Below the pieces are notes generated by a model. That model saw only the letters and a list, made by a program, of their open reading frames with translations, was not told the origin of the DNA and searched no databases. Source: Alphaproteobacteria bacterium (GTDB lineage Bacteria; Pseudomonadota; Alphaproteobacteria; Rs-D84). Taken from it: DNA of 64,000 nt. Every line of letters starts with the position of its first letter. The stretch's first letter is position 1. The position numbers and the translations under genes are program-made. The stretch covers positions 1-64,000 of the forward strand of contig JAVBPX010000007.1 of the NCBI GenBank assembly GCA_031549365.1, given 5' to 3'. Shown here in pieces: positions 6,302-46,029 of the stretch.

Positions 6302-6769
6302 TTATCTAAAAAAGAACTTTACTTTGTTGGTGTTCCCGGACCTGTTACAATATAATTCCTTGCCCGCAGCATACCCATTAATACGAACTTCATCCACAAA
6401 ATCCATTTTTGCAATCGCAAAATAAGCACAATCCGAATAACGAACCTGTTCGTATTCAATTGCATAACGACTACCATTTGTTTCAGAGGTAGCAATCATT
6501 GAATCGCTAATTTGATTTTTCTCAGAACGAATTGCACCCGCTTTGATTAAATATGATGTCGAAATACCAGAATAATTTCCGCGCCCAGCAAATAAAATTT
6601 TAATAGAATCTGACAAAGTACGCAAATCATCAGTCGCAGTCATCTGACGCTGTTGACGTTGAACCGCTTGGAACAATGTCAATGCAGATATCACCATAAT
6701 GGCACCAATTGCCATAACGCCCAAAATTTCAATCAACGACCGACCAGATTCATTTTTAAAAACTCGCAT
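6302..6769 (-). CDS. Type IV pilin-like protein (PilS-type)
   Basis: Prepilin cleavage motif ESG|RSLIEILGVM plus a hydrophobic helix; C-terminal Cys pair. Confidence 0.8.
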   Translation of the reverse strand: MRVFKNESGRSLIEILGVMAIGAIMVISALTLFQAVQRQQRQMTATDDLRTLSDSIKILFAGRGNYSGISTSYLIKAGAIRSEKNQISDSMIATSETNGSRYAIEYEQVRYSDCAYFAIAKMDFVDEVRINGYAAGKELYCNRSGNTNKVKFFFR

Positions 6770-6824
6770 ATTCCTCTCCATTTTTCGCACGCCAATTATA
6801 TCATAAAACAAGCAAAATTCCAAA

Positions 6825-7643
6825 TTAAACTTTAAAATCCGTTTTTGCAGAAAACACCTGACGCACTCCTCTAACCCGAATTGCTGATTTTTGCATCCTC
6901 ATGGCCCCAGCCACCGCATCCATCCCGTCATCCTTGTTTTTTCCGATTGGATTAAACTCGGACATTTCGGTAATTAAATTTGAATCCATAACACGATTAT
7001 TAACATACATTTTCCCGGATGATAAAATCGGCTCAATTGCATCCATTATGCGCAATTCTTTTTTTTCATGATTAATAATCGGAACAATTGATATTTGAAA
7101 ATGTTCAATCTTGGCTTCTTGGCGTAAAATTTCTGGGATTGCGCTACCAACGCCATTAACCTCGATTCCAACAACATTTAAATCATATCGTCGCAAAAAA
7201 TTTAATACCGCCCGACACTGCGTTTTCATCGGATACAAATCATCATCTGAAACACGAATATATAAAACGTCATGAATAAAAACATTTTTTGACACCGCAT
7301 CAAAAAATAATAGCGCACAAACACTACCATCTGCCCGCGCACGTCCACTGGACGGATCCCAATAAACAGAATAATTGGATATCGAATATTGCCCCAAACG
7401 CCCCTCACCCCGATATGTAATCAACTCGGAATCATATTCAATCAAACGATTTGGATCCAGCCTAATTTTTTCAATTGGGATTACTTCCAACATCATCTGA
7501 GACATAAAAAGTCGAATCCCAACACGATCGCGCATTCTATTAATTGCATCAATTGAAAAAACCTCGGGCCAATTTGAATTTCCATTTTCATCCACAATTG
7601 GAATTTTTAAAATATCAAACCCATGCAAAAATCCTTGCTTCAT
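6825..7643 (-). CDS. Phage terminase large subunit, C-terminal nuclease half
   Basis: YWDPSSG, GIEVNGVG, KKELRIMDAIEPIL and KDDGMDAVAGA RNase H-like motifs; own GAGG RBS before MKQGF. Confidence 0.85.
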   Translation of the reverse strand: MKQGFLHGFDILKIPIVDENGNSNWPEVFSIDAINRMRDRVGIRLFMSQMMLEVIPIEKIRLDPNRLIEYDSELITYRGEGRLGQYSISNYSVYWDPSSGRARADGSVCALLFFDAVSKNVFIHDVLYIRVSDDDLYPMKTQCRAVLNFLRRYDLNVVGIEVNGVGSAIPEILRQEAKIEHFQISIVPIINHEKKELRIMDAIEPILSSGKMYVNNRVMDSNLITEMSEFNPIGKNKDDGMDAVAGAMRMQKSAIRVRGVRQVFSAKTDFKV

Positions 7644-7712
7644 AACAATCCTCATAAACCTTGTGTAATCTAGGGCTACAAGCAACACAATAAAAATAAA
7701 AAATATCACGCT

Positions 7713-7896
7713 ATAAAAAAACTCCGGTCTTGCAACCGGAGTTTATTCTGAGCGTCCACATAGAGAAGGAGGAAGGAAAGGAGAAAGGAACGCCCAAAAA
7801 CTTCAAAAACTTGTTATCCCAGGGGCCTAGAGGAGAGAGAATGTAGGAGGGAGTCTAGCACCCCTGGAATATATACAGGGGATTTCTCTCCTGATA
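7713..7896 (-). ncRNA. Predicted small RNA with CU-rich anti-Shine-Dalgarno loops (cuckoo/alpha-r14-like architecture)
   Basis: Sigma70-type promoter upstream, three stem-loops (two with CUCC/CCUCCU-rich loops) and an intrinsic terminator ACUCCGGU-N6-ACCGGAGU-UUUUUU. Confidence 0.7.
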
Positions 7897-7901
7897 CATC
7901 A

Positions 7902-7929
7902 AATATAACAAAAGTTTTTTATTTGTCAA
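7902..7929 (-). promoter_or_regulatory. Sigma70-type promoter of the predicted sRNA
   Basis: TTGACA (7929-7924), 16-nt spacer ending in TGT (extended -10), TATATT (7907-7902). Confidence 0.65.
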
Positions 7930-8135
7930 GGGAATAAATTAAAAAATCTTTTCTTTTGTCTAATTCGGTGAATCCACGCACTTCCCACAACTTAAAAAAC
8001 ATCAAAAACGCCAAGATTTTTCACCAAAATCAAACAATTATCCACAGAACACAAAGTGCAACGTGGAATCTCCCGGCTAATAAATAAAAATCCCCAGTAT
8101 GCTTTTGTTCAATGCAACCCGACGGCCGAAACACC

Positions 8136-8747
8136 CTACCCAACATCATAAATCGTGTCTTTGGCATGGGGCGTCCCAATATAAATCATCGCACCATCCG
8201 GCGACAAAATAAAATCCAACTCTTTTAAACGCTCTCTCATCTGTTCGCGCTTGATGGCCGTATTACAAGTATTCGGCACTTCAACATCATCACAAATAAT
8301 TAAATCTGCCCGCAATCCTGTGATATTTCCATGCAATCCCTGACATACAACCGACGGCTCACGCATACCGGGGCGCCGAGCAACAGTAATCCTATCTGAC
8401 GACCACTCTTTTTTTACACGCGGCACTAAATGTTGGCATCCCGGATGCGATTCGATAATATTTTTGATATGGGTAACCATGCGCGTTGCTAAATTTTGTT
8501 CGGCCGATAATATTAAAATTTTGCTTTCCGGCCTAACAGATAAAACATACGCGACAAATGCTCCAACCACAGATGATTTCCCAGAATGCCTAAACGCCAT
8601 CATTAACCCACGACGCGTATCCCCACATAAAACATTACATAAAAATTCAACCATACACCTATGATGCATCGGCATAGACAATCCTAAAAAATCATTCCAA
8701 ACATCAATAAAATCATTCACAGATTTTACATCAACGGATCGAAACAT
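8136..8747 (-). CDS. Phage terminase large subunit, N-terminal ATPase half
   Basis: Walker A AFRHSGKS, Walker B ADLIICDDVE, coupling motif YIGTPH; stops right after the ATPase domain. Confidence 0.88.
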   Translation of the reverse strand: MFRSVDVKSVNDFIDVWNDFLGLSMPMHHRCMVEFLCNVLCGDTRRGLMMAFRHSGKSSVVGAFVAYVLSVRPESKILILSAEQNLATRMVTHIKNIIESHPGCQHLVPRVKKEWSSDRITVARRPGMREPSVVCQGLHGNITGLRADLIICDDVEVPNTCNTAIKREQMRERLKELDFILSPDGAMIYIGTPHAKDTIYDVG

Positions 8748-9301
8748 CCATAATCATCCTCGGAATCAACAGAATCTGTAATTTTTCCATAATCATCAAT
8801 TAATGTTGGAATCGCATTATGCAACACATTGACCAAATTATAAAACAACCCCATTTGTCCAGATCCAACCCGGCTATTGATTAAATCATCAATATAATGC
8901 ATTTGCCCCAATAATTCTTTGGACCATTTTTTCATCTCTTCGTAACGAACAGACGACTCCATAGCATCCAAACTATACCCGGCAACATCCTTCATAGACT
9001 CCAATAAAAAATTAAAATCTGAATTTAGTTGATCTGCCTCGATCACACGATTTGGCTGATAATCGACCGCGCGCTCTAAATTAATAACACGCATAATTGT
9101 AACAACAACATCTTTTGCGGGCGGCACATCAAAATTGATAACTCCGCCAACCTTGCCGATTTGATGATCTACTTTATAAATTCCATATTCAATAACGTCT
9201 GAATTAACCATAACTTTAACATCATACTCGGAAAATATAAAAAACGGGAAACCAAACTCCATTTGAATCCCATCTGAAACATACTGTATTTTTTGAACCA
9301 T
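8726..9301 (-). CDS. Short phage tail fibre-like protein (T7 gp17-type N-terminal anchor)
   Basis: N-terminus YVSDGIQMEFGFPFFIFSEYDVKV...ADQLNSDF resembles podovirus fibre anchors; no long receptor-binding domain. Confidence 0.65.
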   Translation of the reverse strand: MVQKIQYVSDGIQMEFGFPFFIFSEYDVKVMVNSDVIEYGIYKVDHQIGKVGGVINFDVPPAKDVVVTIMRVINLERAVDYQPNRVIEADQLNSDFNFLLESMKDVAGYSLDAMESSVRYEEMKKWSKELLGQMHYIDDLINSRVGSGQMGLFYNLVNVLHNAIPTLIDDYGKITDSVDSEDDYGCFDPLM

Positions 9302-9309
9302 AACACACC

Positions 9310-9762
9310 CTATCCTTTAACTATATTTTTACCAATAGATTTCAATAAATTTTTACTACCTTTGGTCTTTTTATATTTTCGTACTAAATTTTTTTTCTGA
9401 TTTTCCAATTCATCCATTGATTCTTTTTGACTGATTTCTCTTTCTAAAAAATCCTCATTGATTTCTTTTTCCAATCTTTTTAACACAGCAACATCGCTAT
9501 CCGAATCCGCCGAAGCCCCACCAGCACCATAACCAGCCCGCTGTTTTGCAATTGTTTTTTTAATTAAATTAGCTTTATTTTTATTTGCCTCGGCCATCTG
9601 ACGAATTAATTTTTGTCTTTCGGTCTCAACCTCTAAAATATCACTTTTTAATTTTTTCTTTTCTTTTTTGGCATCACTAACGCTTCCGCCAATTGATTTA
9701 ACAGCATCCAAACTCCCAGATACCCCTATAATTTTTTCAACATCACTTACAATTTGTCCCAT
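9310..9762 (-). CDS. Putative internal virion/ejection-type coiled-coil protein
   Basis: Lies after the nozzle gene; coiled coil with QRAGYGAGG motif. Confidence 0.5.
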   Translation of the reverse strand: MGQIVSDVEKIIGVSGSLDAVKSIGGSVSDAKKEKKKLKSDILEVETERQKLIRQMAEANKNKANLIKKTIAKQRAGYGAGGASADSDSDVAVLKRLEKEINEDFLEREISQKESMDELENQKKNLVRKYKKTKGSKNLLKSIGKNIVKG

Positions 9763-9835
9763 AACAACCCCTATTTTTTTAAATATAATACACCAAATAT
9801 GCCGGACCTGGTCGACGCGCCGCCATAAATATCAC

Positions 9836-11572
9836 TTATATGTAATTCCCAGAAACCAAAACAGACAATACTGTTATCGGCAATTCTTCGTCCCCCACGA
9901 TTGACCATAACGGGCAATCACATTTTGTCATAGTTCCTAATACGCCAACCGAAACATCACCGGAATATCCTGGGTTATCATCCGCATAAATAGAATTATC
10001 CAATGCGATTTTTTTCGAACCATCTCCAAAATCAACATTTATTGATTTCGTATCCAACACCCGGATCACACATTTATCAATCCGAATTTTTTTCGGCAAA
10101 TTCATACTGTCTGTAATCATCGGCAAACCGGCCACACAATGTGTGTATTTATATTTTCCACAATCGCTAAAAACCGCATTATCAAATTTTTCCAAATATG
10201 TTTTTTCATCACGATCTACAACAACATAAATATCTTCCATAACAATGGCTAATGATTTAAAAATCCCCGCTGTCCTATAAACAGACCACGCAGCCACCTC
10301 AACCGACGGCACATAAGTTAACACCGCAATACTACCATCTCCACAAACGACAAACAATTGATGCCGTCCATTATGATACGCCATCGCCAACGGCCGATTC
10401 ATTAAATGGCTTGATAATACGGCTAAATCTTGGGCGCTATATGTACCGTTTAATTTATCCAAAACCAACTCACGAATTTCATTTCCTGAACGCGACACAA
10501 ACACAGTCGATCCTTCAACCGATTGCGGCGCCAAATACGAATCAACATATGACCCAACATTTGTCTGTTGCTGAATTTGAATTGATGTGGGCGTAATTGG
10601 ATCCCCTGAAATACTCCATTCTGCAATACTGGTCAAAACTTGTAAATGCGTACCAGAAACAACCGTAACAACTTTTTGCTGTTGATGCGATAATAACATT
10701 AATGAAATCGCATCATCATCCAATCCGTTTCCTACATTAAAATTAAAATGATTCCCTGTTTTTGATAACCAAACACCACAAGGCACATCCCGCGTCCCGC
10801 CAAAAACCAATCTATTTTGATGAAATGTAACGGACGACGGGAAACCACGGCGTGGTGAAAAAACGCCCTCCTGCCAATCTGGGAAAAATCCAGTCGGACA
10901 ATCTTTCAGCGGCCGATTCTGGGAAACATCAATATACTCATCCGTAACAACGCGAATAATAAATTCCCCATCATAAAATCTTAAATGCGATCCAATATCA
11001 GATTGCTTAAAATGATTTTTCTCGGACACATATAAACGAACATGCCCCAATAATTCAGACGTCCCCAATTTTAATGAAACCCCCGAATTATCATCAAATT
11101 TCGCGAATGGAATGCAGCGCATACTATCAACCAAATCAAAATAAATATTCGCAATTGAAAATTTTCCATCAGCATTTCGTTTTAAAACTTGCGGCATATA
11201 ATCGGTATGAACAAAAATCATTTGGGAAAATCGTTGCGCTGATTGAATTTGGTTCAAATCCTTTTCATCCCAAATCGTATCCAGTTCGGCAATTTTAATA
11301 TCATCATCGTAAATTGTTAATTTGCGATCTGTTAAAACACATAAATAATCCATATCATCACGGAATACGAATGAAAACAACCGCGCCTTTCCAACAATTT
11401 CATCAACCAAAACTGTCCCAGATCTACGACGAATACCCCCAGAAACCAAAACATCCATATTTTGTAATTTTGAAACACCATTGATAACATTTTTCAAATC
11501 GTTACGAACATGAGCAAATTTGCTAATTTCCCCAGACGAAAAATTAGATTGCGTTTTGATAAAACGTCCCAC
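9836..11572 (-). CDS. Podovirus tail tubular protein B / nozzle (T7 gp12-like)
   Basis: QSNFSSGEIS start, GGIRRRSGT, FPSSVTFHQNRLVFGG and VAAWS motifs. Confidence 0.85.
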   Translation of the reverse strand: MGRFIKTQSNFSSGEISKFAHVRNDLKNVINGVSKLQNMDVLVSGGIRRRSGTVLVDEIVGKARLFSFVFRDDMDYLCVLTDRKLTIYDDDIKIAELDTIWDEKDLNQIQSAQRFSQMIFVHTDYMPQVLKRNADGKFSIANIYFDLVDSMRCIPFAKFDDNSGVSLKLGTSELLGHVRLYVSEKNHFKQSDIGSHLRFYDGEFIIRVVTDEYIDVSQNRPLKDCPTGFFPDWQEGVFSPRRGFPSSVTFHQNRLVFGGTRDVPCGVWLSKTGNHFNFNVGNGLDDDAISLMLLSHQQQKVVTVVSGTHLQVLTSIAEWSISGDPITPTSIQIQQQTNVGSYVDSYLAPQSVEGSTVFVSRSGNEIRELVLDKLNGTYSAQDLAVLSSHLMNRPLAMAYHNGRHQLFVVCGDGSIAVLTYVPSVEVAAWSVYRTAGIFKSLAIVMEDIYVVVDRDEKTYLEKFDNAVFSDCGKYKYTHCVAGLPMITDSMNLPKKIRIDKCVIRVLDTKSINVDFGDGSKKIALDNSIYADDNPGYSGDVSVGVLGTMTKCDCPLWSIVGDEELPITVLSVLVSGNYI

Positions 11573-11583
11573 ATTTAACTCCT

Positions 11584-12126
11584 TTAATACCTAACATCCA
11601 ATAACGAAAAATGAATTCCCCCATCTCTTGACACTTGGGAACTGTCTATAAATTTTGCCTGACGTAATTCGGCCTCGAACAAAGAAACCAGAGTCCGGTA
11701 TAAATTATAATTCTCGGTCAGAGGCAAACAAAATTCGCACGCCAACTTTAAAACAGCAATTGATTGAAAATATGGAGGATAGTCGGAAACATCGACTCGC
11801 CGAATATAATTCAAATTAATCGAAGATGTATTTGCAAAAATATTTGCACCCATAACTTCATAATTATTTGTTTCATCCACACTTATAATCCGCAAACAAT
11901 CAGACGGGATTAAAAAACAATTTTTCCTATCCTCACCTGCAACAGGGATCAATCTTTTTGAAACTCTGGCAAAATTCCAAGGATGCATCGCCACCAAACC
12001 ATCAACAACGCCTGGAAATATTGCATGCGCCATAACGGCCGCAACCGATTCTTCCGACATGGAAACAATCGGTTTTTCACCAATTTTTAATAATGCTTGC
12101 GCGCATAAATCTATTTTGGTTAACAT
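11584..12126 (-). CDS. Podovirus tail tubular protein A / adaptor (T7 gp11-like)
   Basis: TKIDLCAQALLKIGEKPI, HPWNFA and IPSDCLRII motifs; upstream of the nozzle gene. Confidence 0.85.
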   Translation of the reverse strand: MLTKIDLCAQALLKIGEKPIVSMSEESVAAVMAHAIFPGVVDGLVAMHPWNFARVSKRLIPVAGEDRKNCFLIPSDCLRIISVDETNNYEVMGANIFANTSSINLNYIRRVDVSDYPPYFQSIAVLKLACEFCLPLTENYNLYRTLVSLFEAELRQAKFIDSSQVSRDGGIHFSLLDVRY

Positions 12127-12216
12127 TTAAAAACCTCTCTATTAATAAGGGCAACCATAATGGCACCAAACAGCCCATCGCCAAATCGAACACTTGAATC
12201 AGCAATGGGCACAAAA

Positions 12217-12444
12217 TTATAACGCAACCGTTTTAACAACTTCATCCGTGCTTGTTACAACCAATATTCTAGTGGCATCAGTTCCGTTTGTTAAAATCAT
12301 ATCGCCCTTGTTCATCAATCCAGAAACAGTATTAAAAAAACCATCGACCTGAATATTTGCAATCGCTTCACGACCGGCATAATGCCACAAAGTAAAGCCA
12401 TTTGCATATGCAATGACCGACAAACATTTATTTGAAAAAGACAT
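12217..12444 (-). CDS. Small conserved phage head-associated protein
   Basis: LSVIAYANGFTLWHY motif, strong AAGGAG RBS, directly after the capsid gene. Confidence 0.65.
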   Translation of the reverse strand: MSFSNKCLSVIAYANGFTLWHYAGREAIANIQVDGFFNTVSGLMNKGDMILTNGTDATRILVVTSTDEVVKTVAL

Positions 12445-12552
12445 AAATAACTCCTTATTTAATTATTAAAAATCCTATCGGTTCGATCTGAAATTCAATA
12501 TATTATTTTCATTGCAATAATTTATAAAATCTGACCGAACCGGTAAAATTAA

Positions 12553-13374
12553 CTATTGTGCGTCTTCACATTTCAAACGAACAACACCAGATCCATCAAC
12601 CATAATGGCCCCTTGGGACATACTGTTTGATACGAAATGCGCTGCACGTTCACCATGCCAAGAAATATCGGATTTCACATCCTGACCACATGCATGACCA
12701 ATGGCCGAACGGTGATAAATGAAACAATCACGCTCATCTCCATTAATTGGTAACGCATTATGTAAAACCCAAATAATCCCCATCCATTTTTTGGACTCGG
12801 ATCCACTCAATAATGGATATTGATTTCCAACATATTCTGATGATACAAATTCATCCATGGACAATAATTGGTTCCATTGATTAACACCAACAACAGCAAA
12901 TCTCTGACCATCATCTGGCACATCATTTTGATTTAATTTTGCAATTGCGGATAAAATCAAATCCTTGGACAAACCGGTTGAATAATCCCCAACAAATGCG
13001 GTCGCAGAATTCATAGCATTAATAATTAATTCATCGGTTTTTCGACCCAACGCATACGCCCCAGCGGACGCAACAACACGACGTTCATCAACATTGGTTT
13101 TTAATTCATCCAATGCATCAACCCAATCCCCTGCATAAAAATCATTCAACAAACATTCAACTGGCTCATGATCCAAATTCATCACAGGCACCAACCCATG
13201 ACGCGATTTTGAACTGGCAATACCTTTGCCTACTTTTTGAAAAGTTGTGCTTGCGCCAACAACTCCATTTTTTGATCTAACCGTAGCACGCAATTTTGTA
13301 CCAATTTGTTGATACGCCAAATGCACATCGGCTTCGAACTGTTTAACAAACGCTTGGTCAATTGACAAAGACAT
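12553..13374 (-). CDS. Podovirus-type major capsid protein
   Basis: SIDQAFVKQFEADVHLAYQQIGTKLR, YAGDWVDALDELK, AYALGRKTDELII and SAIGHACG; AAGGAG RBS. Confidence 0.88.
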   Translation of the reverse strand: MSLSIDQAFVKQFEADVHLAYQQIGTKLRATVRSKNGVVGASTTFQKVGKGIASSKSRHGLVPVMNLDHEPVECLLNDFYAGDWVDALDELKTNVDERRVVASAGAYALGRKTDELIINAMNSATAFVGDYSTGLSKDLILSAIAKLNQNDVPDDGQRFAVVGVNQWNQLLSMDEFVSSEYVGNQYPLLSGSESKKWMGIIWVLHNALPINGDERDCFIYHRSAIGHACGQDVKSDISWHGERAAHFVSNSMSQGAIMVDGSGVVRLKCEDAQ

Positions 13375-13527
13375 CTATAACTCCTTTATTAAATTAAAAA
13401 ACCGGGAATGAACCCCACTCCCGGCAAACACAAATACTCTCACAGTTGTACAGGAAATATTAAAAACCAAACGTCAAACAAATCACGATTTTCTGATAAT
13501 TCGAAACCCTATAATTTATCTAAATTA

Positions 13528-13599
13528 ATATAAATATATTTATTTCTACATTTTATTTTTCAAATAAAATGCCCCAACAATCGTTGGGACAACAAATAA
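13528..13599. repeat. Direct repeat copy 1 flanking the GNAT gene
   Basis: ATATAAATATATTTATTTCTACATTTTATTT...AAATAAAATGCCCCAACAATCGTTGGG matches 14453-14527. Confidence 0.75.
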
Positions 13600-13703
13600 T
13601 CCAATATCAAAATTAATGTTATATTTTTAATAAAATCTCGCGCTGCAAAAATATACTTCTAAACACTCGGGCCCAACTGGGTTCCCCGAAAAACTCACTT
13701 ATT

Positions 13704-14291
13704 TTATTTGAATTCTTTTGCTAATTTTGAAAACAATGCCGAAGTTCTGAATCTATTTTCTTTTCTTACAAATACATCTTCGCGCAATTCGCCCTCAAAT
13801 ACATAACCGCAACGGCTGGCTACTTTTTTGCTTTGTTCATTTTCCCTATCGCACCGTATAAAAATTCTATTCATTTTAAAATCATTAAACAGCTCTTTTT
13901 CCAGTGCCGAAATTGCATATTTGATAATCCCTTTGCCTGTCATATCTTTATCCAGCCAATATCCCAATCCACACAACCTGTCTTGCGTATTTATCTTGTG
14001 AACATCAATCCATCCGCACATAGCGCCATCAAAAAAAATCCCAAACTCAAAATTTTTACAATCCTCCCAATCAGACTTTGCAGCATATAAAAACGCCAAA
14101 GAATCATTAACATCTTTTACAACATCGTCATTTGCCCACTGAACAAATGGCAACAGATGATGCCGATTTCTTTCCGTCATATTAAAAAGCAATCGCGCAT
14201 TTTCCAAATCGGGTTCGACAAATCTCAATTCCAAACCTTTGACGTCCGTTGAAATTACTTTTGGAAACATCTTTAAATCAATAACATCCAT
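13704..14291 (-). CDS. RimJ/RimL-family GNAT acetyltransferase
   Basis: GLGYWLDKDMTGKGI and NEQSKKVASRCGYVFEGELRE; start trimmed to MDVID. Confidence 0.88.
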   Translation of the reverse strand: MDVIDLKMFPKVISTDVKGLELRFVEPDLENARLLFNMTERNRHHLLPFVQWANDDVVKDVNDSLAFLYAAKSDWEDCKNFEFGIFFDGAMCGWIDVHKINTQDRLCGLGYWLDKDMTGKGIIKYAISALEKELFNDFKMNRIFIRCDRENEQSKKVASRCGYVFEGELREDVFVRKENRFRTSALFSKLAKEFK

Positions 14292-14452
14292 CAAAAATCC
14301 TTTTATATTTTGTACCAATCGCTTGAAGAATAGCATAAAATTTATATTTTTCAAACTATTAACATATGATTGGCAGAATTGAACTTCGTCTACTTGACGA
14401 CCCACCCACCAGAATTTTAACACAAGGAAAACTCAACGATGCAATCTCAACT

Positions 14453-14527
14453 ATATAAATACATTTATTCCTACATTTTTATTTACCAAAATAAAAATGC
14501 CACAACACTCGTTGGGCAAAAAATAAA
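14453..14527. repeat. Direct repeat copy 2 flanking the GNAT gene
   Basis: ATATAAATACATTTATTCCTACATTTTTATTT...AAATAAAAATGCCACAACACTCGTTGGG matches 13528-13599. Confidence 0.75.
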
Positions 14528-14614
14528 ATATTTTAAAGGCTAAATACTCTCTTTCAAAAATCCCCGAACTTTTTTATTGTCCGGGGATCACTCTCTAACA
14601 AGAAATCAAAATTA

Positions 14615-15376
14615 TTACTTCTTGGCAAACATAAATGATAATTCACTATAAATTGCTCGGAACGAAGTAATTGTTAATGTCAAAATAAATGACACTATTG
14701 CGAAACGACGAACTGCAAACCAAACCATATCCCATGAAAACCAACATACTTGGTCCGATAAACAGTATTCCGACAAACTACGTCCAATTATATGCCCAGC
14801 ATCCAAATAATACAGAATTCCCGCTACAAATCCCAATCCCAAAGAAATCACAACGTTTTGTTTTAATTCCTTGGAAACTCTTGGACGACGTTTTTCTGTG
14901 TAATTTCCATAAACAAACAAAAATACACATGCAATAACAAACAAAAACATAGGAATAAAAAATTTCATAAACAACGAAATCCAAACAAAAAATTGGTCAA
15001 TTAAAAACAAATCTAATGAAAACACATCTGTGTATCTATAAACAGCAACCGCATTCATAACACCAAAATAAGTTGCAACAAATGCTGACACCATCATCCA
15101 AAATGCCATAAACCGTCTGGCACCAATATAACCCGCAATATTTGTAATTTCATGCCCAATATTGCTAACTGAATTTTGTGTTTCTTTTAACAACTTTTGC
15201 TCCGCAGCACCCTTTTTTTCAGGCACCACAGAATTTAAATCTTTTTCAACAGCTTCAACCACCTTAACAGGCTTAACAACTTTCTCCGCCTTAACTGATT
15301 TAACAGCCTTAATCTTTTTAACTTTTTTGACCTTAATTTCTCTTGCCAATGAAACTTTCTTTTTTGGTCTTGCCAT
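14615..15376 (-). CDS. Hypothetical membrane protein with Lys-rich N-terminus
   Basis: MARPKKK...VKKVKK N-terminus followed by about four hydrophobic segments; GAGG RBS. Confidence 0.7.
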   Translation of the reverse strand: MARPKKKVSLAREIKVKKVKKIKAVKSVKAEKVVKPVKVVEAVEKDLNSVVPEKKGAAEQKLLKETQNSVSNIGHEITNIAGYIGARRFMAFWMMVSAFVATYFGVMNAVAVYRYTDVFSLDLFLIDQFFVWISLFMKFFIPMFLFVIACVFLFVYGNYTEKRRPRVSKELKQNVVISLGLGFVAGILYYLDAGHIIGRSLSEYCLSDQVCWFSWDMVWFAVRRFAIVSFILTLTITSFRAIYSELSFMFAKK

Positions 15377-15455
15377 AATCCAATCCTCTCTATTCTCTCG
15401 AACTCTCCTAAACAAAAAACGGGTTCAACCAAATGGCCGAACCCGCACAACCATC

Positions 15456-16031
15456 TTATTTTTTCTTTGCTACTTTTTTAACAGCTGGTTTTTTGGCTGC
15501 TGGTTTTTTAACAGCAACTTTTTTTGCAACTGGTTTTTTCGCAGGGGCTTTTTTTGCCACTACTTTCTTAGCAACTGGTTTTTTTGCTGCTGGTTTTTTT
15601 GCAACTACTTTTTTAACAGCTGGTTTTTTGGCTGCTGGTTTTTTAACAGCAACTTTTTTTGCAACTGGTTTTTTCGCAGGGGCTTTTTTAACAGCAACTT
15701 TTTTTGCAACTGGCTTTTTTGCGGCTACAGGTTTTTTTGCAACAGCTTTTTTAACAGCCAATTTTGCAACTTTTTTTGCAACTGGTTTTTTCGCAGGAGC
15801 TTTTTTAACAGCAACTTTTTTGGCCACTGGTTTCTTAGCAACTGGTTTTTTAACAGCTACAACTTTTTTTGCAACTGGTTTCTTAGCGGCTGGTTTTTTC
15901 GCAGCTACTTTTTTAACAGCTGGTTTTTTAACAGCTGGTTTTTTTGCAGCAGCTTTAACAGCAGGTTTCGCAGCTACTTTTTTTGCAGCTGGTTTTTTCC
16001 CTTCGCTAAAGAACTTTGATAATACGGACAT
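15456..16031 (-). CDS. Histone H1-like Lys/Ala/Pro repeat protein (Hc2/AlgP-like)
   Basis: Almost entirely KKP(A/V)A, KKVAV and KKAPA pentapeptide repeats; AGGAG-rich RBS. Confidence 0.85.
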
Positions 16032-16150
16032 TCCTTTCTCCTTCCTTATTTATCTCAGATCATTTTTTAATGATCTTAAAACAATTGTAATGGATCTGGA
16101 AATTTTAGTAAAGCACTTTTTAATAAATTCTAAAAAATAATTTCAAAAAA

Positions 16151-16807
16151 TTACGAATATAATTTTTTAAAACCCGATTCAATTTTTTTTACATACTCTT
16201 GATCGTGTTCTCTCCAATATTTTGGATCACGCATCATCGTTCGTAAATCATTTTCATTTAATGATGAATCAAAATTTTCACCAGTTGAAATTTTTGGCTC
16301 AACCGATTGCATCATATTGTATAACGCTTGTATTCCCTTGGCGCTGGAACACATTGTATTCATAACATCTTCCGGCAAAAACTTTTCGCCCCACGCTTGA
16401 ATTGATTCACATGATGAAATCATTTTATCTTTTGAACCAAAAATTTTTTCTAATTCACTTAATTCTTCCAACTCGGATCGAATTTGAAAAATATTATCCA
16501 ACTCTGGTTTTAAAATTTCATCCGCCAACAAATAAATCTGTTCAACTTGATTTTTATTCAAACCAATTTTTTTAAACGTATTTCGAATCGAATCATTATT
16601 TTCAAACATCGGATGTATCGGATATTCTGAAACATCATCCGGCACACCAATTGCTTTGAAAAACTTCTGACGACATTCATCATCCATATCATTATTTGGG
16701 ATTGAAATCATCCCACCCATCTTTTTTTCCAACGCCAAATATGAATTCATCAATGAATCCACATTCAACTCACCATTTTCATTTTTAAATTTTTCTGGAA
16801 TATCCAT
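16151..16807 (-). CDS. Capsid assembly scaffolding protein (podovirus-type)
   Basis: IPEKF...SYLALEKKMG start and C-terminal LRTMMRDPKYWRE...GFKKLY. Confidence 0.8.
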   Translation of the reverse strand: MDIPEKFKNENGELNVDSLMNSYLALEKKMGGMISIPNNDMDDECRQKFFKAIGVPDDVSEYPIHPMFENNDSIRNTFKKIGLNKNQVEQIYLLADEILKPELDNIFQIRSELEELSELEKIFGSKDKMISSCESIQAWGEKFLPEDVMNTMCSSAKGIQALYNMMQSVEPKISTGENFDSSLNENDLRTMMRDPKYWREHDQEYVKKIESGFKKLYS

Positions 16808-16879
16808 AACCCCTCCACAGTAAAAGTATTACCCACTTAATGAACGAACTAAAATAACGTCAAAATGGGATGAGTATAA

Positions 16880-16948
16880 AGAATTCCAAAAATTTTAGGG
16901 CCGCGATGTACATAGTGGTACATAAGGTTCTAAAATTTTTGGAACTTG
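16880..16948. repeat. Family B-like long hairpin
   Basis: TTCCAAAAATTTTAGGGCC...ATGTAC-ATAGTG-GTACAT...GGTTCTAAAATTTTTGGAA. Confidence 0.55.
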
Positions 16949-16970
16949 TTTTTAATCGCCCATTTTCACG

Positions 16971-17159
16971 TTATTTTGCAATACTGGAACGCAGAAAAAA
17001 TATCCCAGCCAACGGAAACACCGTCTGCAATAAATCAATCAAACCTAAATCTCCGACAAAAAACGCACCGATTGCGGAAATAATTCCAACCCCGGTTGTA
17101 ATATATGTCTTTTTACCTTTAAATAACCCACCATTAATAATGCTTAAAATTGTATTCAT
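16971..17159 (-). CDS. Small two-TM holin-like protein
   Basis: 62 aa, FKGKKTY motif, two hydrophobic helices, AAGGAG RBS; next to a cell wall hydrolase. Confidence 0.6.
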   Translation of the reverse strand: MNTILSIINGGLFKGKKTYITTGVGIISAIGAFFVGDLGLIDLLQTVFPLAGIFFLRSSIAK

Positions 17160-17284
17160 AATAACTCCTTATATATAATGTCTAAAACACACCAACCTTT
17201 GACTCTAAAAAAATACCCGTACCAACAAAAGTATTTCAAAATCAATCAAAACGTACTAGTTGGCTTCGCTTTTCATTGATTTTT

Positions 17285-17740
17285 CTATAAATAAAATAAC
17301 AAATTCCCAACTTCATAAATATACCCCAACGCTCTGGCCCAATCCGGATCCATATCATTTCGATGAAACCGAACCGCTGAAAATATATTATTTGAAATTT
17401 GTCCTAACATCATCCGCCGAATTGTTCTTAAACAAACCAAAAATTCTTCATCAGTGTTATCAACAAACAAATACGAATGATGATTCGATTCCCGATCTAA
17501 CGATTCAAATAGTGCCGCATCCTCACCAATTGCTTCAAAAGATTGTCCCAACAATTTATGTCGATTTAAAATCATAGCAGCCAATGCTTCCTTAACCGCT
17601 AAATCTTCACCACTTGTTTCCGCATACATTACTCGGGCCAATTTATATTGAATCCTCTTTTCATCATCATAATTTTCAATAATTGTAAAAATCGGCTTTG
17701 AAATTTGTGAAACCATTTCTGTTTTTAAAACAACATTCAT
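17285..17740 (-). CDS. Cell wall hydrolase (SleB/Hydrolase_2 family)
   Basis: LARVMYAETSGE, AAMILNR, AVRFH...PDWA...VGNLLFY. Confidence 0.8.
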   Translation of the reverse strand: MNVVLKTEMVSQISKPIFTIIENYDDEKRIQYKLARVMYAETSGEDLAVKEALAAMILNRHKLLGQSFEAIGEDAALFESLDRESNHHSYLFVDNTDEEFLVCLRTIRRMMLGQISNNIFSAVRFHRNDMDPDWARALGYIYEVGNLLFYL

Positions 17741-18024
17741 AAATTGTCTCCTCTCTCTAATTTTTTTTCAATCCTCAACAAATGATCCGTCAACCTAGTT
17801 TCCAAATCCTTCATAGCGGACATACTTGCGTAATTCCTTGCAACATCTAATTTATAATCAGCCAAATCTTTGCGAATTGCATCTACATGAAACGCATAAT
17901 TCTCGCGTAAACGTTCAACCAAATGTTCGACTGCCGAAATCTGATTTCGAATCCATAAAAAAAAGCCCCCGATCAAGGGAACTTCTACAACCTGTATCCA
18001 CCAGGCCAAATCCATATTCTCCAT
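17737..18024 (-). CDS. Phage-type membrane-anchored coiled-coil protein
   Basis: N-terminal TM then LADYKLDVARNYAS...RLTDHLLRIEKKL; translationally coupled to the hydrolase. Confidence 0.6.
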   Translation of the reverse strand: MENMDLAWWIQVVEVPLIGGFFLWIRNQISAVEHLVERLRENYAFHVDAIRKDLADYKLDVARNYASMSAMKDLETRLTDHLLRIEKKLERGDNL

Positions 18025-27386: not shown

Positions 27387-28610
27387 TTAATAATTATTTG
27401 TTCTGATTGTCCATCCGCCTTTTGCTGTTGGCCAATTCGTAGTTGAACGTAAATAATCAAACCTTACCGCCTTTAAGGTATCCATAAATTCTGGGACTTT
27501 GTTTTCTGGAATTGAATTAATAGCTTTTATTGTATTAGCACCTATTTTGCCATCAACTTTTAACCCTGCATCGGCATAAGAATTTAATGCATTCTGTGTA
27601 ACGCGACCCGCGCCACCCATTACATTCATATCAAATACAGCATTTCTGATACGATCATTTTCTATTTTTGGTATATCCGTTTTATCCCAATATGCATCCT
27701 TATAAATTTCACGCGCTTGTTCTTGCTTCAAATCTTTCACATCTTTTGGGAATTCCTTATCAGGGTGTTTTGCGCTGTAATCATCAAGGGTGCTTTGCTT
27801 GATACCCATATTTGTAGGCTCATCTTTTTTCTGATTCTTTCCATCTGTATAACCACCTTCGGGCTCCTTAAGGTTTTTATACGCTGTTTCAAAGTTTTTA
27901 TCTTTATCCACTTCCTTCTCTTTCCATTCTTTTTTCTTTTCGTTTAACTCTGCCAGTTTAGCTTGTTTCTCAGGATCTGGTTTTCCGTACTCCGCCTCAT
28001 ATTCTTCCTTGGTCATTTCTTCTGCATAACATGCACAATTTGGATGCATCCCACCCGCTTCATTTGGATCGCTTAAAATTGTGCCGGCCATTGATGCGCA
28101 TGCATCACAGCCACCGCCACTGCACCAGACATATACTACCTCTTTATCACAGATGCATACTTCAATTGGCCAACCACAATCTTGGCAATTGGCCTCGTTC
28201 TCTTCCCCTGAATCCAGGATTTCAACATCATAAATTTCAAGATTTTTTGTCTCGATAACATCGTCATTCATCAAAACTCTTACTGGGATTATTTCAGACA
28301 AAATAATCTTGAACTCTGTTTCAGATTCTTCTGCATCCTCATCATTTTCATCGTCACCTTTTTTTATTTGTTTAATTTTCTCATCCAGTTCGACTTTTAT
28401 TTGGGCTTCCGCTTCCTCAAACTGCTCAAGCGTCATATCGTATTCAGGTTCTGCCATACGACCAGTCGCGTCATATTCCAAAGTTCCCGGATAGAACCTT
28501 TGCAATTGCTTTGTAACTTCTGCATTTGTTTTCGAATGGGATGGATTATCTTTATTTATGTACGCGTCCGACCGCATTAGTTTTCTTAAAAACTGTGGTG
28601 TTTTTATCAT
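27387..28610 (-). CDS. GH108 lysozyme with N-terminal acidic and Cys-rich (MuF-like) region
   Basis: EGGY...DEPTNMGI, AREIYKDAYW, VFDMNVMGG, DGKIGANT and GWTIR; upstream CDAC...HPNCAC motif. Confidence 0.8.
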   Translation of the reverse strand: MIKTPQFLRKLMRSDAYINKDNPSHSKTNAEVTKQLQRFYPGTLEYDATGRMAEPEYDMTLEQFEEAEAQIKVELDEKIKQIKKGDDENDEDAEESETEFKIILSEIIPVRVLMNDDVIETKNLEIYDVEILDSGEENEANCQDCGWPIEVCICDKEVVYVWCSGGGCDACASMAGTILSDPNEAGGMHPNCACYAEEMTKEEYEAEYGKPDPEKQAKLAELNEKKKEWKEKEVDKDKNFETAYKNLKEPEGGYTDGKNQKKDEPTNMGIKQSTLDDYSAKHPDKEFPKDVKDLKQEQAREIYKDAYWDKTDIPKIENDRIRNAVFDMNVMGGAGRVTQNALNSYADAGLKVDGKIGANTIKAINSIPENKVPEFMDTLKAVRFDYLRSTTNWPTAKGGWTIRTNNY

Positions 28611-28619
28611 TGGTTTTTC

Positions 28620-28944
28620 CTTTGTTAAATAAAAAGCCCCGCACAATGGCGGGGCAATAAAAAACGGCGGCAAATCCGCCTCAATATGCTTTGCATTGTA
28701 CCACAAATCGTCAAAAAAATCAATAATAAACACCCTTAAAATTCCGACGCACCAATGAACAGTGCACTGCCAAAAACGGGCATTGTATGTAAACATCAAA
28801 ATATCGCCGTATTTTCACATATAAAATTACATACCATTGCAATAACCTTAAAAACACATCAAAAAATCCCCGGATTCCGGGGATAATTCAAGGGCTATTG
28901 ATTTTGTTAAAAATTACAGCAAAATCAACAAGTTATCTGGCGGG
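28620..28944 (-). repeat. att/promoter/leader module, copy at left (paralogue of 52280-52613)
   Basis: AACAGTGCACTGCC...TTATCTGGCGG is clearly homologous to 52428-52613. The homology continues through TTGATT-N17-TACAAT and two leader hairpins. Confidence 0.85.
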
Positions 28945-32617: not shown

Positions 32618-33922
32618 ATGAGCAGACACATCGTGATCAGAAAAGAAACATATGGAACTATTGTTTTCTCTCCAGATAAAGCTTGTTTTTATGAAATAAA
32701 AGATACAACCTTAAAAGATTTATTGATCAAAGACCCAAATTTTTTGTCCGCAGTGGAAAAGACGAAATACGCCAATGAGCTTCAAACTCTTGGCGTTTTT
32801 TCTTATCCAGTCCGAATTATTGATAATACAAATAGTAATTCATTTATCCCATTAGAGGCTTATTTTGATTACACATCAAAATGCAACCGAACATGTAGGT
32901 ATTGTTATAACAAAGATTTTATTAACCAAACAACTATGAAACCATCAATTGTTCAAAAAGTTTTCAATGATTTTTATGATCTTGGAATAATGAGAGTTCA
33001 TTTAGCCGGAGGAGAGCCAACGATAGATTATGACGGTATCAAAAACTATATTGAATATGGGAACAAAAAAGGAATGGTCATTTCTATGGCTACAAATGGT
33101 ACTCTTTTGGATGATAAAATGTGCGATCTGCTGACCTCAAATGATTTACTGTCTGTTAGTTTTAGCATTGATTCCGCATCCAAAGAAAAAAATGATGAAC
33201 GCAGAGGTGTTGGAACATTTGATAAATTAATCTCCGGAGTAGAAACATTGGGCAGATATAAAATATTGAATAACAGTTCAGTAGAGATTTGCTTTAAACC
33301 CGTTTATTCCCCAAGCTTTACGAAGCAAGAAGCAATAGATTTAATTGATTTAGCAATAAGTTTAGGTGTTGAAAAAGTTAAATTTGCAAATCCTGAGCGC
33401 TGTTTGTTTCATGAACAAAGATACTATGGAAAGATAAGTTCTGAGTATTATAACACATCTGAAATGCTTCAATCTGTCATTGATGACTATAAACTTAAAA
33501 TCGCATTAACAAACATTACTAATCCCGTATTTTGTAATGCAGATATTGGAATTTTTGAAAATAAAGGATGTATTGGCGCTCAAGAGCTTATAACAATAAA
33601 TCCAGATGGAAGAATTACACCATGTTTAATGAACCACACATTACTGGGTAATTATTATGATTATGAATCTCTATCTCGGTTTCTGGATACATCCAAAGAA
33701 TTAAAAGAATATAGAAAGTCAATAATTACAAAATCTTGTTTCAGTTGCCAATCTTACAAACAATGTCGTGGTGGCTGCCAGGTCAGAAAAATAGTCGAGT
33801 TTGGAAAAATTCAAGGTATTGACCCCCTGTGCCCAATAAAAATGGTTCAACATAAAATAAAACAAACAAATGTAATAAAAAATGAAGCAATCAAAAGAAT
33901 AAACGTTTTTCATTCTCTATAA
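32618..33922 (+). CDS. Radical SAM protein with SPASM domain
   Basis: CNRTCRYC, AGGEP, TNGT, GCIGAQ...PDGRITPC and CFSCQSYKQCRGGC...DPLC. Confidence 0.92.
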   Translation: MSRHIVIRKETYGTIVFSPDKACFYEIKDTTLKDLLIKDPNFLSAVEKTKYANELQTLGVFSYPVRIIDNTNSNSFIPLEAYFDYTSKCNRTCRYCYNKDFINQTTMKPSIVQKVFNDFYDLGIMRVHLAGGEPTIDYDGIKNYIEYGNKKGMVISMATNGTLLDDKMCDLLTSNDLLSVSFSIDSASKEKNDERRGVGTFDKLISGVETLGRYKILNNSSVEICFKPVYSPSFTKQEAIDLIDLAISLGVEKVKFANPERCLFHEQRYYGKISSEYYNTSEMLQSVIDDYKLKIALTNITNPVFCNADIGIFENKGCIGAQELITINPDGRITPCLMNHTLLGNYYDYESLSRFLDTSKELKEYRKSIITKSCFSCQSYKQCRGGCQVRKIVEFGKIQGIDPLCPIKMVQHKIKQTNVIKNEAIKRINVFHSL

Positions 33923-33931
33923 GGAAACACA

Positions 33932-35236
33932 ATGAAGATTTTTCTCATCAGACATGCTTTATCAGAAGGAAATGTAAATCACATAATTCAAGGAAATGAG
34001 TATGATTATGGAATAAGCCAACAAGGGAAAAACAATCTGAATTCGGTCAAAGAAAATTTAAAAGACAAAGGAATTTCATTCATCCTTCACAGCCCTTCTG
34101 CAAGAACTCTGGAAACAGCAGAATATATTTCCAAAAGTCTGAATATTCCAAAACAATCTGTTTCTGAATTAAGGGAATTTGATTCAGGAGTTTTGGCAGG
34201 ATTAACACATGAACAAGCAAAAAAGGACTTTCCTAAATATTATGATGAATGGATAAAAAGAGGAGATTTAGACTTTATTCCGGGTGCAGAGAAAGGGGAT
34301 AACTTACAAGCAAGATCGATTTATATAGCAAAAATACTCCAACAGTACAAAGATGAAACTATTTTAATAATATCGCACGCTGGGTTTATGAGATCTCTTA
34401 TAAATCTGCTATCATCAAAGGCCAGAATATCGCCTATCAATGTTGAGCATGAATATATCCATGAATTAAATATTGATTTAGATGAACATGAAGAAATAAT
34501 AAAAAATCTTCCAAACAAATCATTATCTAAAGTAAAAACACACGAAAAAACATACGTTATTAAAACACGTAAAAGCACAGAATCCCTACCTGATGTTTTA
34601 TACTATAAGCTATCAGAAGTGGGATTAATTCCAAGATTATGTTTCCTAAAATTAGAACATAATAATTTCACTTCTGTATCTATATGGGAAGATGGATATC
34701 ATTTACACGGAAAACTCGAATACAGCAATTTAATCCGGCTTATAAAAGCAGTAGCGACTTTATTCAATATTATAAATGAAAATAATTATAGTAATATACG
34801 AAAGTTTTCAGACATCGTTAATTGCACTTTATCTAAAAATTTATCTTACTCGGAAGTTTTAAAGATATGCCTTAATAAATTGCCAGTAGAAAACAAAATA
34901 ATTCACTATGATTTACATAGAGACAACATCTTATTTCAAAAAGATTTAATAAAAATTCTTGATGTTGACTCTTTGACTATGGGTAGTAAATTACTGCAAA
35001 TTGGAAGCTTTATCGTATCTTCATTTTTAATAGAAGATTATGATGAAAGTATCATTGATAATGTGTTGTATATCTGGAACTCCGATTATTCAAAAGAAGA
35101 TTTAATCCCGGCTATTATAGCTAAGGCTATCTTGTCATACAATTATTTTGAAAAAAATAAAGATGCTCAAAATAGAGAACATTACTTGCAAAAATATAAT
35201 AGCGTAATAAAACATTTTATAGGAAGTATCACATGA
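33932..35236 (+). CDS. Histidine phosphatase (PGM family) fused to an APH/choline-kinase-like phosphotransferase
   Basis: LIRHALS, SPSARTLETA and ISHAG in the N-terminal half; IIHYDLHRDNILF...ILDVD in the C-terminal half. Confidence 0.85.
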   Translation: MKIFLIRHALSEGNVNHIIQGNEYDYGISQQGKNNLNSVKENLKDKGISFILHSPSARTLETAEYISKSLNIPKQSVSELREFDSGVLAGLTHEQAKKDFPKYYDEWIKRGDLDFIPGAEKGDNLQARSIYIAKILQQYKDETILIISHAGFMRSLINLLSSKARISPINVEHEYIHELNIDLDEHEEIIKNLPNKSLSKVKTHEKTYVIKTRKSTESLPDVLYYKLSEVGLIPRLCFLKLEHNNFTSVSIWEDGYHLHGKLEYSNLIRLIKAVATLFNIINENNYSNIRKFSDIVNCTLSKNLSYSEVLKICLNKLPVENKIIHYDLHRDNILFQKDLIKILDVDSLTMGSKLLQIGSFIVSSFLIEDYDESIIDNVLYIWNSDYSKEDLIPAIIAKAILSYNYFEKNKDAQNREHYLQKYNSVIKHFIGSIT

Positions 35237-41508: not shown

Positions 41509-41689
41509 AAAGTTTCTCCTTCTTTAGTATTAAAGATAACTCTTTTTATTAAAAAATCAATCATTAGTTGCAATTAATAATTCATAAACATAAACACCAA
41601 ATGAATTATTAAGCGCCTATAGAAAGGGCCGCGGGCCTTAATATGAAGAAGTTTGCTTGACTTTTGGGGTGGCATAAGCCATCATTAAC

Positions 41690-41875
41690 GTGATATCGGG
41701 AGTTCCGATATTGGGGTATAAAAACCTCTTCGTGTACGTCTGCAGACGTTAAATGCCCCCAACCGATTTATGGTTGGAGGGCTGGTGAAATAAGGCTTGC
41801 CAAATACACCGCACTATTTACACGATAGTTCTTAACCTCCAACCACCATTTCCTTGATCTGGTGGTCTTTTAATT
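41690..41875 (+). ncRNA. Putative structured leader RNA (C4-like/attenuator-like)
   Basis: Several hairpins; TGGTTGGAGG (41771-41780) can pair with either 41753-41765 or CCTCCAACCA (41836-41845). Confidence 0.4.
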
Positions 41876-41898
41876 AATAAACCAAGGAGGACCTTTTA

Positions 41899-42216: not shown

Positions 42217-42230
42217 ACAAAGGAATAAAA

Positions 42231-42644: not shown

Positions 42645-42686
42645 TCCTAAAACGAACCCCGGAATTAACTCCGGGGTTGGCAATAT

Positions 42687-45827: not shown

Positions 45828-45938
45828 TTTATACCTCCTTTTATACTGTTTACAGAGGCCTGCATTTTTAAGCACGCCTCGATAATATACCCTAATTTGA
45901 ATTCACAATGTTAAAATGGCTAAAATTTGACGGTTTCA

Positions 45939-45985: not shown

Positions 45986-46029
45986 ATTATTTATTAGCTA
46001 TACTAAGAGTATAAATAAAGGGGCAGAAC

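Follow-up and report, generated by a model that had tools for sequence, protein, structure and literature searches.

A cluster of podovirus-type genes occupies positions 6825-18024, on the minus strand throughout, of a stretch of 64,000 nucleotides (nt) of contig JAVBPX010000007.1 in assembly GCA_031549365.1; the whole stretch is called the window below, and its contig C8. The host belongs to the Enterousia group of the alphaproteobacterial order Rs-D84 and has a genome of 0.91 Mb, the assembly of which comprises 911,163 bases in 15 contigs and is 97.6% complete. It is rather probable that Rs-D84 has domesticated, and passes on vertically, a T7/HTVC010P-like podovirus particle system that works in the manner of a gene transfer agent (GTA) and has its main locus in this cluster, and the genome carries a strong candidate for a new kind of GTA. 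The genes amount to a coherent list of predicted parts, under selection, for head, short tail, packaging enzyme and lysis. In this genome they are found at three places or more: the window cluster, a portal gene with a Bbp19-like gene on contig C4, and a helix-turn-helix (HTH) regulator with two small genes, sA and sB, on contig C3. We infer that its particles would be filled with DNA and would move host DNA between cells. According to the available text of the Enterousia genome paper (PMC12306168), Enterousia is placed in Rs-D84, reduced genomes are common to the whole order, and genomes of this type measure 0.7-1.1 Mb and lack the tricarboxylic acid cycle and respiration.

Conservation of the gene set within Rs-D84

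Read from 18024 down to 6825, the cluster consists of T7/HTVC010P-type gene families in the order lysis pair, scaffold, three host-type inserts, major capsid, a protein of 75 amino acids (aa), adaptor, nozzle, a 150-aa protein, fibre stub and two terminase halves (Table 1). All of these genes are intact and co-oriented, as had been described in a first-pass annotation made by a model from the letters of the window; that annotation had also recognized the host-like genes between scaffold and capsid, which encode a histone-like protein, a membrane protein and a GNAT acetyltransferase, and the lack of a portal and of an att site. Indeed, no portal is present inside the window and a search for att-like direct repeats flanking the cluster found none. 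The flanks are ordinary host genes, namely those for FabZ, LpxD, Skp, a DEAD helicase and tRNA-Ser on one side and BipA, MscL and GpsA on the other. The G+C content of the cluster is 0.33-0.39 in 2-kb windows, compared with 0.38-0.41 for whole contigs, with slightly low values at 13-18 kb, which corrects the earlier statement that its composition looks like the surrounding chromosome.

Of 301 Rs-D84 genomes sampled, 273 carry the capsid family, among them 210 of the 223 that are at least 90% complete; it is distributed over 27 of 29 genera and six of six families, nearly always as a single gene per genome, while none of 14 control genomes carries it. A genome collection yielded 161 species genomes with a capsid relative, and the best 80 loci were examined, in which the capsid homologues are 56-81% identical. 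The capsid, adaptor and nozzle genes were detected in every one of these loci and the other core parts in most of them (Table 1). In the relatives the cluster sits at a fixed chromosomal site, with LipB upstream in 48 of 79 loci and a gene labelled u127 downstream in 51 of 79; the present genome is a rearranged variant, to which the termite-gut locus L055 is closest in layout. Rearrangements are also seen in families f3 and f6 (loci L210, L211 and L212), with the order portal, lysis genes, nozzle, scaffold in f6, so that gene order is fluid while gene content is retained. Between this genome and the related locus L008, the capsid shares 80% identity, compared with 52%, 48% and 47% for the host proteins DnaB, LpxI and LipB, respectively.

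Vertical inheritance is also visible in a maximum-likelihood tree of concatenated capsid, adaptor and nozzle sequences from 40 genomes (one of 41 was dropped, having no nozzle match). The two large families each form one clade with 100% support, family labels change three times on the tree, which is the minimum possible (mean of 12.8 with shuffled labels; none of 200 shuffles as low), and genus labels change 14 times for 15 genera. The ratios of non-synonymous to synonymous substitution rates (dN/dS), given as median pairwise values by the Nei-Gojobori method for pairs with dS of 0.1-1.5, which leaves out many saturated pairs involving this genome, range from 0.09 for the capsid to 0.32 for the hydrolase (Table 1), with 0.25 for a 117-aa protein. 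The linked host genes give 0.18 (LipB), 0.10 (a double-HTH regulator) and 0.31 (u149), and purifying selection on the cluster is as strong as on its host neighbours. The first-pass annotation had proposed vertical inheritance of a podovirus-derived system and had named patchy distribution, neutral decay and congruence with the species tree as the points to check; the near-universal single-copy capsid speaks against patchiness, the dN/dS values against decay, and the three-gene tree follows taxonomy, and its proposal is supported.

An ordinary cryptic prophage remnant, decaying and without function, would account for the missing replication and integration genes, for the host-type genes that interrupt the cluster, for a terminase in two pieces and for a portal that has moved away. 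Such a remnant is nevertheless very improbable, given that all genes are intact and under the selection just described, that the capsid is kept in nearly all good genomes on a tree that follows taxonomy, and that the split terminase recurs in other families, where both halves are conserved in four of the five genomes checked. Moreover, a real remnant in the same window behaves differently. This second, unrelated mobile remnant (39808-50778) encodes a SIR2-like protein, a terminase, a DUF5681 protein, a ParB-methyltransferase, a Fic protein, a DUF2924 protein and a large serine recombinase (49258-50778), and the latter corrects the earlier statement that the window holds no integrase, although it belongs to this other element. 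Its terminase (42687-44183, intact, 498 aa) is, like the recombinase, 25-31 kb from the cluster, and it is patchy, occurring in 15 of 61 good genomes and three of 16 genera, with stop codons in three copies and two further copies reduced to fragments. The second element is in this way an internal contrast to the conserved cluster. The host TyrRS gene lies within its span, and a tRNA-Ser gene is found at 52608-52697.

Split terminase, relocated parts and internal signals

Table 1. Features of the particle system and adjoining genes. Locations are window positions unless a contig is named. Related loci are counts among the best 80 loci (by tblastn for capsid, adaptor, nozzle, small head protein, scaffold, portal and terminase halves) unless another total is given.
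Feature	Location	Strand	Evidence	Related loci	dN/dS
95-aa lysis-associated protein, holin- or spanin-like	17737-18024	-	phrog_29007 (E 6e-23); N-terminal membrane helix and coiled coil		
Cell-wall hydrolase, SleB/Hydrolase_2-like endolysin	17285-17740	-	PF07486 (weak, E 0.004); phrog_938	57/80	0.32
Scaffold, T7-type	16151-16807	-	PF05396 (E 1e-11)	67/80	0.25
Histone H1-like gene with Lys/Ala repeats	15456-16031	-	PF07382 (E 7e-34); 15-nt tandem repeats	51/67 (similar reading frame, same place)	
266-aa protein	14615-15415	-	Lys-rich N-terminus, several membrane helices; no Pfam or PHROG family		
GNAT acetyltransferase, host-type insert	13704-14423	-	PF13302 (E 2e-16)	0/80	
Major capsid, HTVC010P/T7-like HK97 fold family	12553-13374	-	PF19821 (E 7e-71)	80/80	0.09
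Small head-associated protein, 75 aa	12217-12444	-	phrog_18004 (E 1.5e-10); directly 3' of capsid gene	78/80	
Adaptor (tail tubular protein A, gp11-like)	11584-12126	-	phrog_394 (E 1e-37); PF17212	80/80	0.22
Nozzle (tail tubular protein B, gp12-like)	9836-11572	-	phrog_376 (E 6e-94); PF25675	80/80	0.21
150-aa coiled-coil protein after nozzle	9310-9762	-	no Pfam or PHROG family	61/80 (same position)	0.25 (L008 homologue set)
Fibre stub, 191 aa	8726-9301	-	phrog_30017, phrog_28871 and phrog_1640 on residues 2-103	35/80 (detected)	
Terminase large subunit, ATPase half	8136-8747	-	phrog_38 positions 290-458 (E 2e-39)	73/80	0.11
Small RNA gene	7716-7929	-	promoter-like site 7929-7902 (11/12 matches); terminator 7744-7719; two hairpins with CU-rich loops	44 loci	
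Terminase large subunit, nuclease half	6825-7709	-	PF22530 (E 1.4e-8); phrog_38 positions 468-706 (E 8e-36)	67/80	0.19
Type IV pilin-like gene, membership uncertain	6302-6823	-	weak PF07963, PF05307 and PF08805; directly after nuclease half		
Portal, T7-type, 466 aa, intact	C4 4225-5625		PF12236 (E 1.8e-101)	67/80	0.10
Bbp19-like gene, 69 aa	C4 5606-5815		overlaps portal end		
HTH regulator, 78 aa, divergent from small conserved genes sA and sB	C3 ~12445-13515			59/80 (HTH homologue linked to cluster)	

The large terminase is encoded in two pieces, and alignment with unsplit homologues places the break in the inter-domain linker. The ATPase half keeps the Walker A, Walker B and TPH motifs, and the nuclease half keeps three acidic motifs (YWDPS, VExNG and DDGxDAVAG). 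The gap between the ATPase-half stop and the start of the longest nuclease reading frame is 426 nt, or ~490 nt to the true start, which probably lies near 7646, and it holds a promoter-like site and a terminator, an arrangement other than that of a single ATPase-nuclease chain. Among five genomes checked of the other families, a split is also found in f2, f3 and f5, with halves ~400 nt apart in f2 and ~264 nt apart in f5, and with the portal just before the nuclease half in the two f3 genomes, while in f6 the N-terminal half alone was found; its occurrence across these families indicates that the split is older than the radiation of the order. In 55 of the 67 related loci with both halves these are 3.3-4.6 kb apart, and the portal follows the nuclease half in 54 of the 55. 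In L008 the opposite strand between the halves carries a 224-aa gene, a double-HTH regulator and DnaB, so that in most relatives the cell's replication helicase sits within the split terminase. This is not so in the present genome, where the one DnaB copy is on contig C7.

The terminase gap of the present genome holds instead a small RNA gene with a fold z-score of -4.0. Its homologues in 44 related loci lie ~250 nt from the HTH gene and point away from it; all 45 sequences share one 28-nt loop without a single difference, and compensatory changes occur in 10 of 23 predicted pairs. The CU-rich loops resemble anti-Shine-Dalgarno sequences. An Rfam scan of the window at gathering thresholds returned two tRNAs and nothing else, with no family for the small RNA and nothing near threshold in the terminase gap. 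The small RNA was not found in the short gaps of f2 and f5, which argues that it did not cause the split.

The portal on C4 sits among the genes for ClpB, SerRS and ribosomal proteins. Two of its neighbours there, a 441-aa protein and a GH108 lysozyme protein, were considered as parts of the system and rejected, as neither has a homologue near the cluster in the 80 loci. The genome encodes two paralogous proteins in which an extended N-terminal part precedes a GH108 lysozyme domain at the C-terminus, one in the window (27387-28799) and one beside the portal (C4 2661-3725).

Concerning the C3 locus, a divergent HTH gene together with sA and sB opens the cluster in those relatives that keep it in one piece. 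The HTH protein of one such relative, L060, is a 206-aa CI-like repressor (phrog_4), and in the present genome it is shortened to 78 aa; host control of the cluster would rest on this linked HTH gene only. Pfam and PHROGs gave no match for sA, sB, the 150-aa protein or the 266-aa protein. In fold searches, the best Foldseek match of sA was the Q21 antiterminator (E 0.74), and VIA-align gave Z 6.5 to the same chain, Z 5.2 to AlpA and Z 4-5 to sigma region-4 entries; the likeness to Q-type antiterminators is a lead only, as its scores are below the level that separates helical proteins. The sB search returned nothing significant, and its LRAT/NlpC-P60-like matches (probability 0.06-0.18), along with invariant His and Cys columns, are likewise only a possible lead. 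None of the three loci (window cluster, portal and C3) is accompanied by replication or integration genes; the three tyrosine recombinases of the genome are on C14 and C15. A whole-genome search for a T7-type RNA polymerase gave no match, its control being silent as well.

Homologues of the 95-aa lysis gene adjoin the hydrolase or the terminase in clusters of one piece, and the hydrolase homologue of L060 matches PF07486 strongly (E 2e-20). The fibre stub corresponds to the N-terminal tail-attachment domain only of a podovirus fibre or spike, and the same domain is found in the full-length, 674-aa spike of locus L066. The 150-aa coiled-coil protein is possibly an internal or tail accessory protein.

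Between scaffold and capsid, the histone-like gene forms its own transcription unit, with a promoter-like site at 16112-16084 and a terminator at 15446-15419. Among 1262 candidate reading-frame starts of the genome, the start region of the histone-like gene is predicted to pair most strongly with the small RNA loops (-28.7 kcal/mol). The leader of this gene (to 16112) contains a palindrome and a long GA-rich ribosome-binding region, and a conserved, operator-like inverted repeat (GAACAAA, an A/T spacer, TTTGTTC) occurs just upstream of the gene in L008 (~9380-9430) and in many Enterousia loci. The 266-aa membrane protein, to which weakly similar proteins are encoded at the corresponding position in L055/L099 and L096, is probably a host-type insert. 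A strong terminator-like hairpin (13425-13401) ends just 27 nt before the capsid start codon, and the capsid operon would therefore need read-through or a very short promoter region. Such hairpins inside the cluster, taken with the weak Q-type likeness of sA, suggest control by read-through, which is only a lead.

The study behind the probable source sample also produced an RNA library, contigs of which lie at 12151-12434 (small head gene), 12451-12903 (capsid gene) and 14619-15299; another of its sequencing runs, X3, contains almost nothing. The RNA contigs are a weak hint of expression, as the library possibly contains DNA; the terminase halves and several other cluster genes are uncovered, which proves nothing. 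The depth of these contigs is far higher on the histone-like gene than on its neighbours, a figure that repeats of other organisms may inflate.

Some further features of the window deserve mention. A pilin-like gene recurs directly 3' of the nuclease half in three separate lineages, being present in this window, in L055 (19938-20405), in L099 and in L072, and may be a receptor or uptake part or a chance neighbour. A region of low G+C content (0.30-0.33) at 32618-36468 contains genes for two radical SAM enzymes, one of them B12-binding, and for a histidine phosphatase-family protein, and may be an acquired cassette, while the window end (62260-63975) encodes a TraG/VirD4-like type IV secretion coupling protein, which hints at a conjugative system.

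Related clusters, proposed working and alternative readings

Unsplit clusters of ~10.5-14 kb occur in other Alphaproteobacteria. In L060 and L066-L083 they share the gene order portal, Bbp19-like gene, scaffold, capsid, small protein, adaptor, nozzle, fibre, terminase and lysis genes, and in L060 and L066, for which the whole locus was annotated, the cluster extends from the HTH gene to the lysis genes, with host genes on both sides and no replication genes. The flanks of the present cluster and of L008, L055, L060 and L066 contain no replication or integrase genes; for L079 the flanks alone were scanned, and most open reading frames matched no family. The small gene directly upstream of the large terminase gene in unsplit clusters belongs to phrog_31793 and is a positional candidate for the small terminase, and tblastn found no homologue of it in the present genome. 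The first-pass annotation had also named best hits to a complete, recently integrated prophage as a point to check, and the closest matches are the same stripped cluster in related genomes, the nearest capsid of an isolated phage being 44.5% identical (EXVC031P) and those of other isolated phages at most 33%. A plasmid collection contained no capsid relative, and a protein atlas returned generic capsid clusters only, with no useful taxa.

A live mobile element, such as a small phage or satellite spreading horizontally among these bacteria, could be seen in the many such stretches that IMG/VR lists as proviruses (12.3-14 kb, from sA to just past the lysis genes) and in a 5-kb faecal record, MT838907, that carries an L060-type piece. 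It is the least probable of the alternatives considered: no integrase, replication gene or att-like repeat adjoins the cluster, which is single-copy at a fixed chromosomal site in the relatives and has a tree that follows taxonomy, and in this genome the parts are on three contigs. As evidence of packaging, MT838907, the one virus-labelled public record that was found ('Bacteriophage sp.'), was rejected, for it is just such a piece, from portal to nozzle. Some of the IMG/VR provirus record numbers resemble what we take to be isolate-genome entries, and the unsplit clusters among these provirus calls may offer a direct bench test.

Phage-sized contigs (36-37 kb in IMG/VR, and marine contigs) encode capsids that are 45-59% identical to the present one, their other genes being only ~30% identical. 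As related true phages exist and the part list is incomplete, lacking a small terminase and ejection proteins and having a stub for a fibre, the cluster could be an anti-phage device or a means of exploiting phages, in which its products are decoys that poison the assembly of related podoviruses or parts that are completed by a helper phage. This is improbable, since a decoy would have no need of a complete and coherent set of parts kept for as long as the order has existed, and mixed assembly with proteins of such low identity is unlikely.

As for a GTA-like particle system, its working can be proposed as follows. The HTH protein, perhaps together with sA as an activator or antiterminator, would relay a signal of the host that leads to the assembly of procapsids from portal, scaffold, capsid and small head protein, and these would be filled by a terminase of two polypeptides, the ATPase half and the nuclease half. 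As no small terminase was found, the cargo would probably be cellular DNA picked up irrespective of its sequence. Adaptor, nozzle and stub fibre would close the head, the membrane protein and the cell-wall hydrolase would lyse the producer cell, and kin cells would import and recombine the DNA by means of ComEC, DprA and RecA, which are present in this genome and in 10-14 of 14 control genomes.

Several points weigh against this proposal. No small terminase was found in this genome, so that the first-pass expectation of missing parts elsewhere in the genome held for the portal and failed for the small terminase; and Pfam and PHROG scans found no ejection or internal core proteins of the gp14-16 type in cluster or flanks, which together with a fibre reduced to a stub would make the route of DNA into a recipient obscure. 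The terminator-like hairpins and host genes split the cluster into several units, and its parts could perhaps no longer act together. Furthermore, cluster and portal together, at ~13 kb, would fit a head sized as in related 32-37 kb phages, which makes self-packaging conceivable. At the level of the class, 37 of 198 good genomes have a single close capsid match, mostly 50-69% identical with this capsid as query, and with such a patchy capsid a single old origin outside the order would be conjectural.

Some of the same points would suit a particle with a use other than gene transfer, be it a device for killing or predation, a carrier that brings DNA or protein into other organisms, or a capsid that condenses DNA in connection with the adjacent histone-like protein. 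The conservation data fit any selected function, the histone-like gene lies within the head module and at the same place in most related loci, related unsplit clusters occur in Micavibrio-labelled genomes, and no small terminase, no ejection proteins and no more than a fibre stub are present. Such a use is rather unlikely, if clearly the foremost of the alternatives, in that the catalytic motifs of both terminase domains are kept under purifying selection, which indicates DNA packaging, the lysis genes and ComEC, DprA and RecA are kept, and the loci examined show no linkage of the cluster to a cargo or toxin gene.

A wider proposal can be made only tentatively, as it is somewhat doubtful as a whole: the GTA-like system would belong to a second, old alphaproteobacterial GTA lineage, unrelated to RcGTA and of T7/HTVC010P-like origin, whose ancestral cluster, ~10.5-14 kb long and adjoined in L060 by a CI-like repressor, would survive in many orders, and which in Rs-D84 would have become a dispersed host regulon with a two-subunit large terminase and no small terminase, maybe tied to the histone-like protein and the small RNA.

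If DNA-carrying particles are made, they would show that a short-tailed virus was domesticated independently in the same class in which GTAs were discovered, and they would allow abundant but uncultured bacteria of gut and rumen to exchange genes. Retention of the genes in genomes of 0.7-1.1 Mb argues for a strong benefit, one possibility being recombination that counters mutational decay. In addition, the split terminase provides a natural experiment that asks if the ATPase and the nuclease of a packaging enzyme have to be joined in a single chain.

Comparison with known systems

Literature searches on Enterousia and Rs-D84, GTAs, podoviruses, defective prophages and split terminases, with supplements outside their scope, returned no description of this system, and the words phage, capsid and gene transfer are absent from the available text of the Enterousia genome paper (PMC12306168).

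One term of comparison is given by RcGTA and CcGTA (Rhodogtaviriformidae), which according to the available portions of two papers (PMC9662315, PMC5721377) are phage-derived head, tail and packaging genes in alphaproteobacterial chromosomes, lack replication and integration genes, are vertically inherited under purifying selection, have further parts at other loci and occur with the recipient genes ComEC and DprA. The same holds for the present system: its phage-derived head, tail and packaging genes lie in a cellular chromosome, they are inherited vertically under purifying selection, and they have no replication, integration or lysogeny module of their own that would make them self-transmissible. 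The structural genes, however, are not homologous, for here there are a PF19821 capsid, a PF12236 portal and a short tail of gp11/gp12 type, and the large terminase is in two genes and no small terminase was found. An HK97-type PF05065 capsid had no match in this 97.6%-complete genome, the same search being positive in four controls including Caulobacter, which places the cluster outside the RcGTA type; the first-pass annotation had already set its T7-like genes apart from the HK97/siphovirus-like genes of RcGTA.

The GTA of Faecalibacterium prausnitzii (FpGTA) is, from the accessible part of its description (PMC12946183), also a system of a gut bacterium with stripped particle genes at two or more loci and no replication genes, and its morphology is probably podovirus-like. 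Unlike the present system, it belongs to Bacillota, has a candidate TerS, and its packaged DNA of 8.4-8.9 kb has been sequenced and supplemented with proteomics; the two are likened by description only.

Pelagiphages of the HTVC010P and EXVC031P type and temperate T7-like podoviruses share the gene families and the ancestral order of the unsplit clusters, but they have complete genomes of 32-37 kb with replication modules. The cluster and its flanks contain no early or replication genes, no gp14-16, no full fibre and no integrase, and are thus not a complete phage or prophage of this kind.

RcGTA-like clusters in highly reduced endosymbionts, as reported in the available text of PMC9254644, resemble the present case in that particle genes are retained in alphaproteobacterial genomes of ~1 Mb, which in both instances argues for a benefit under genome reduction. 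Those clusters are homologues of RcGTA, whereas the cluster described here derives from a different virus lineage.

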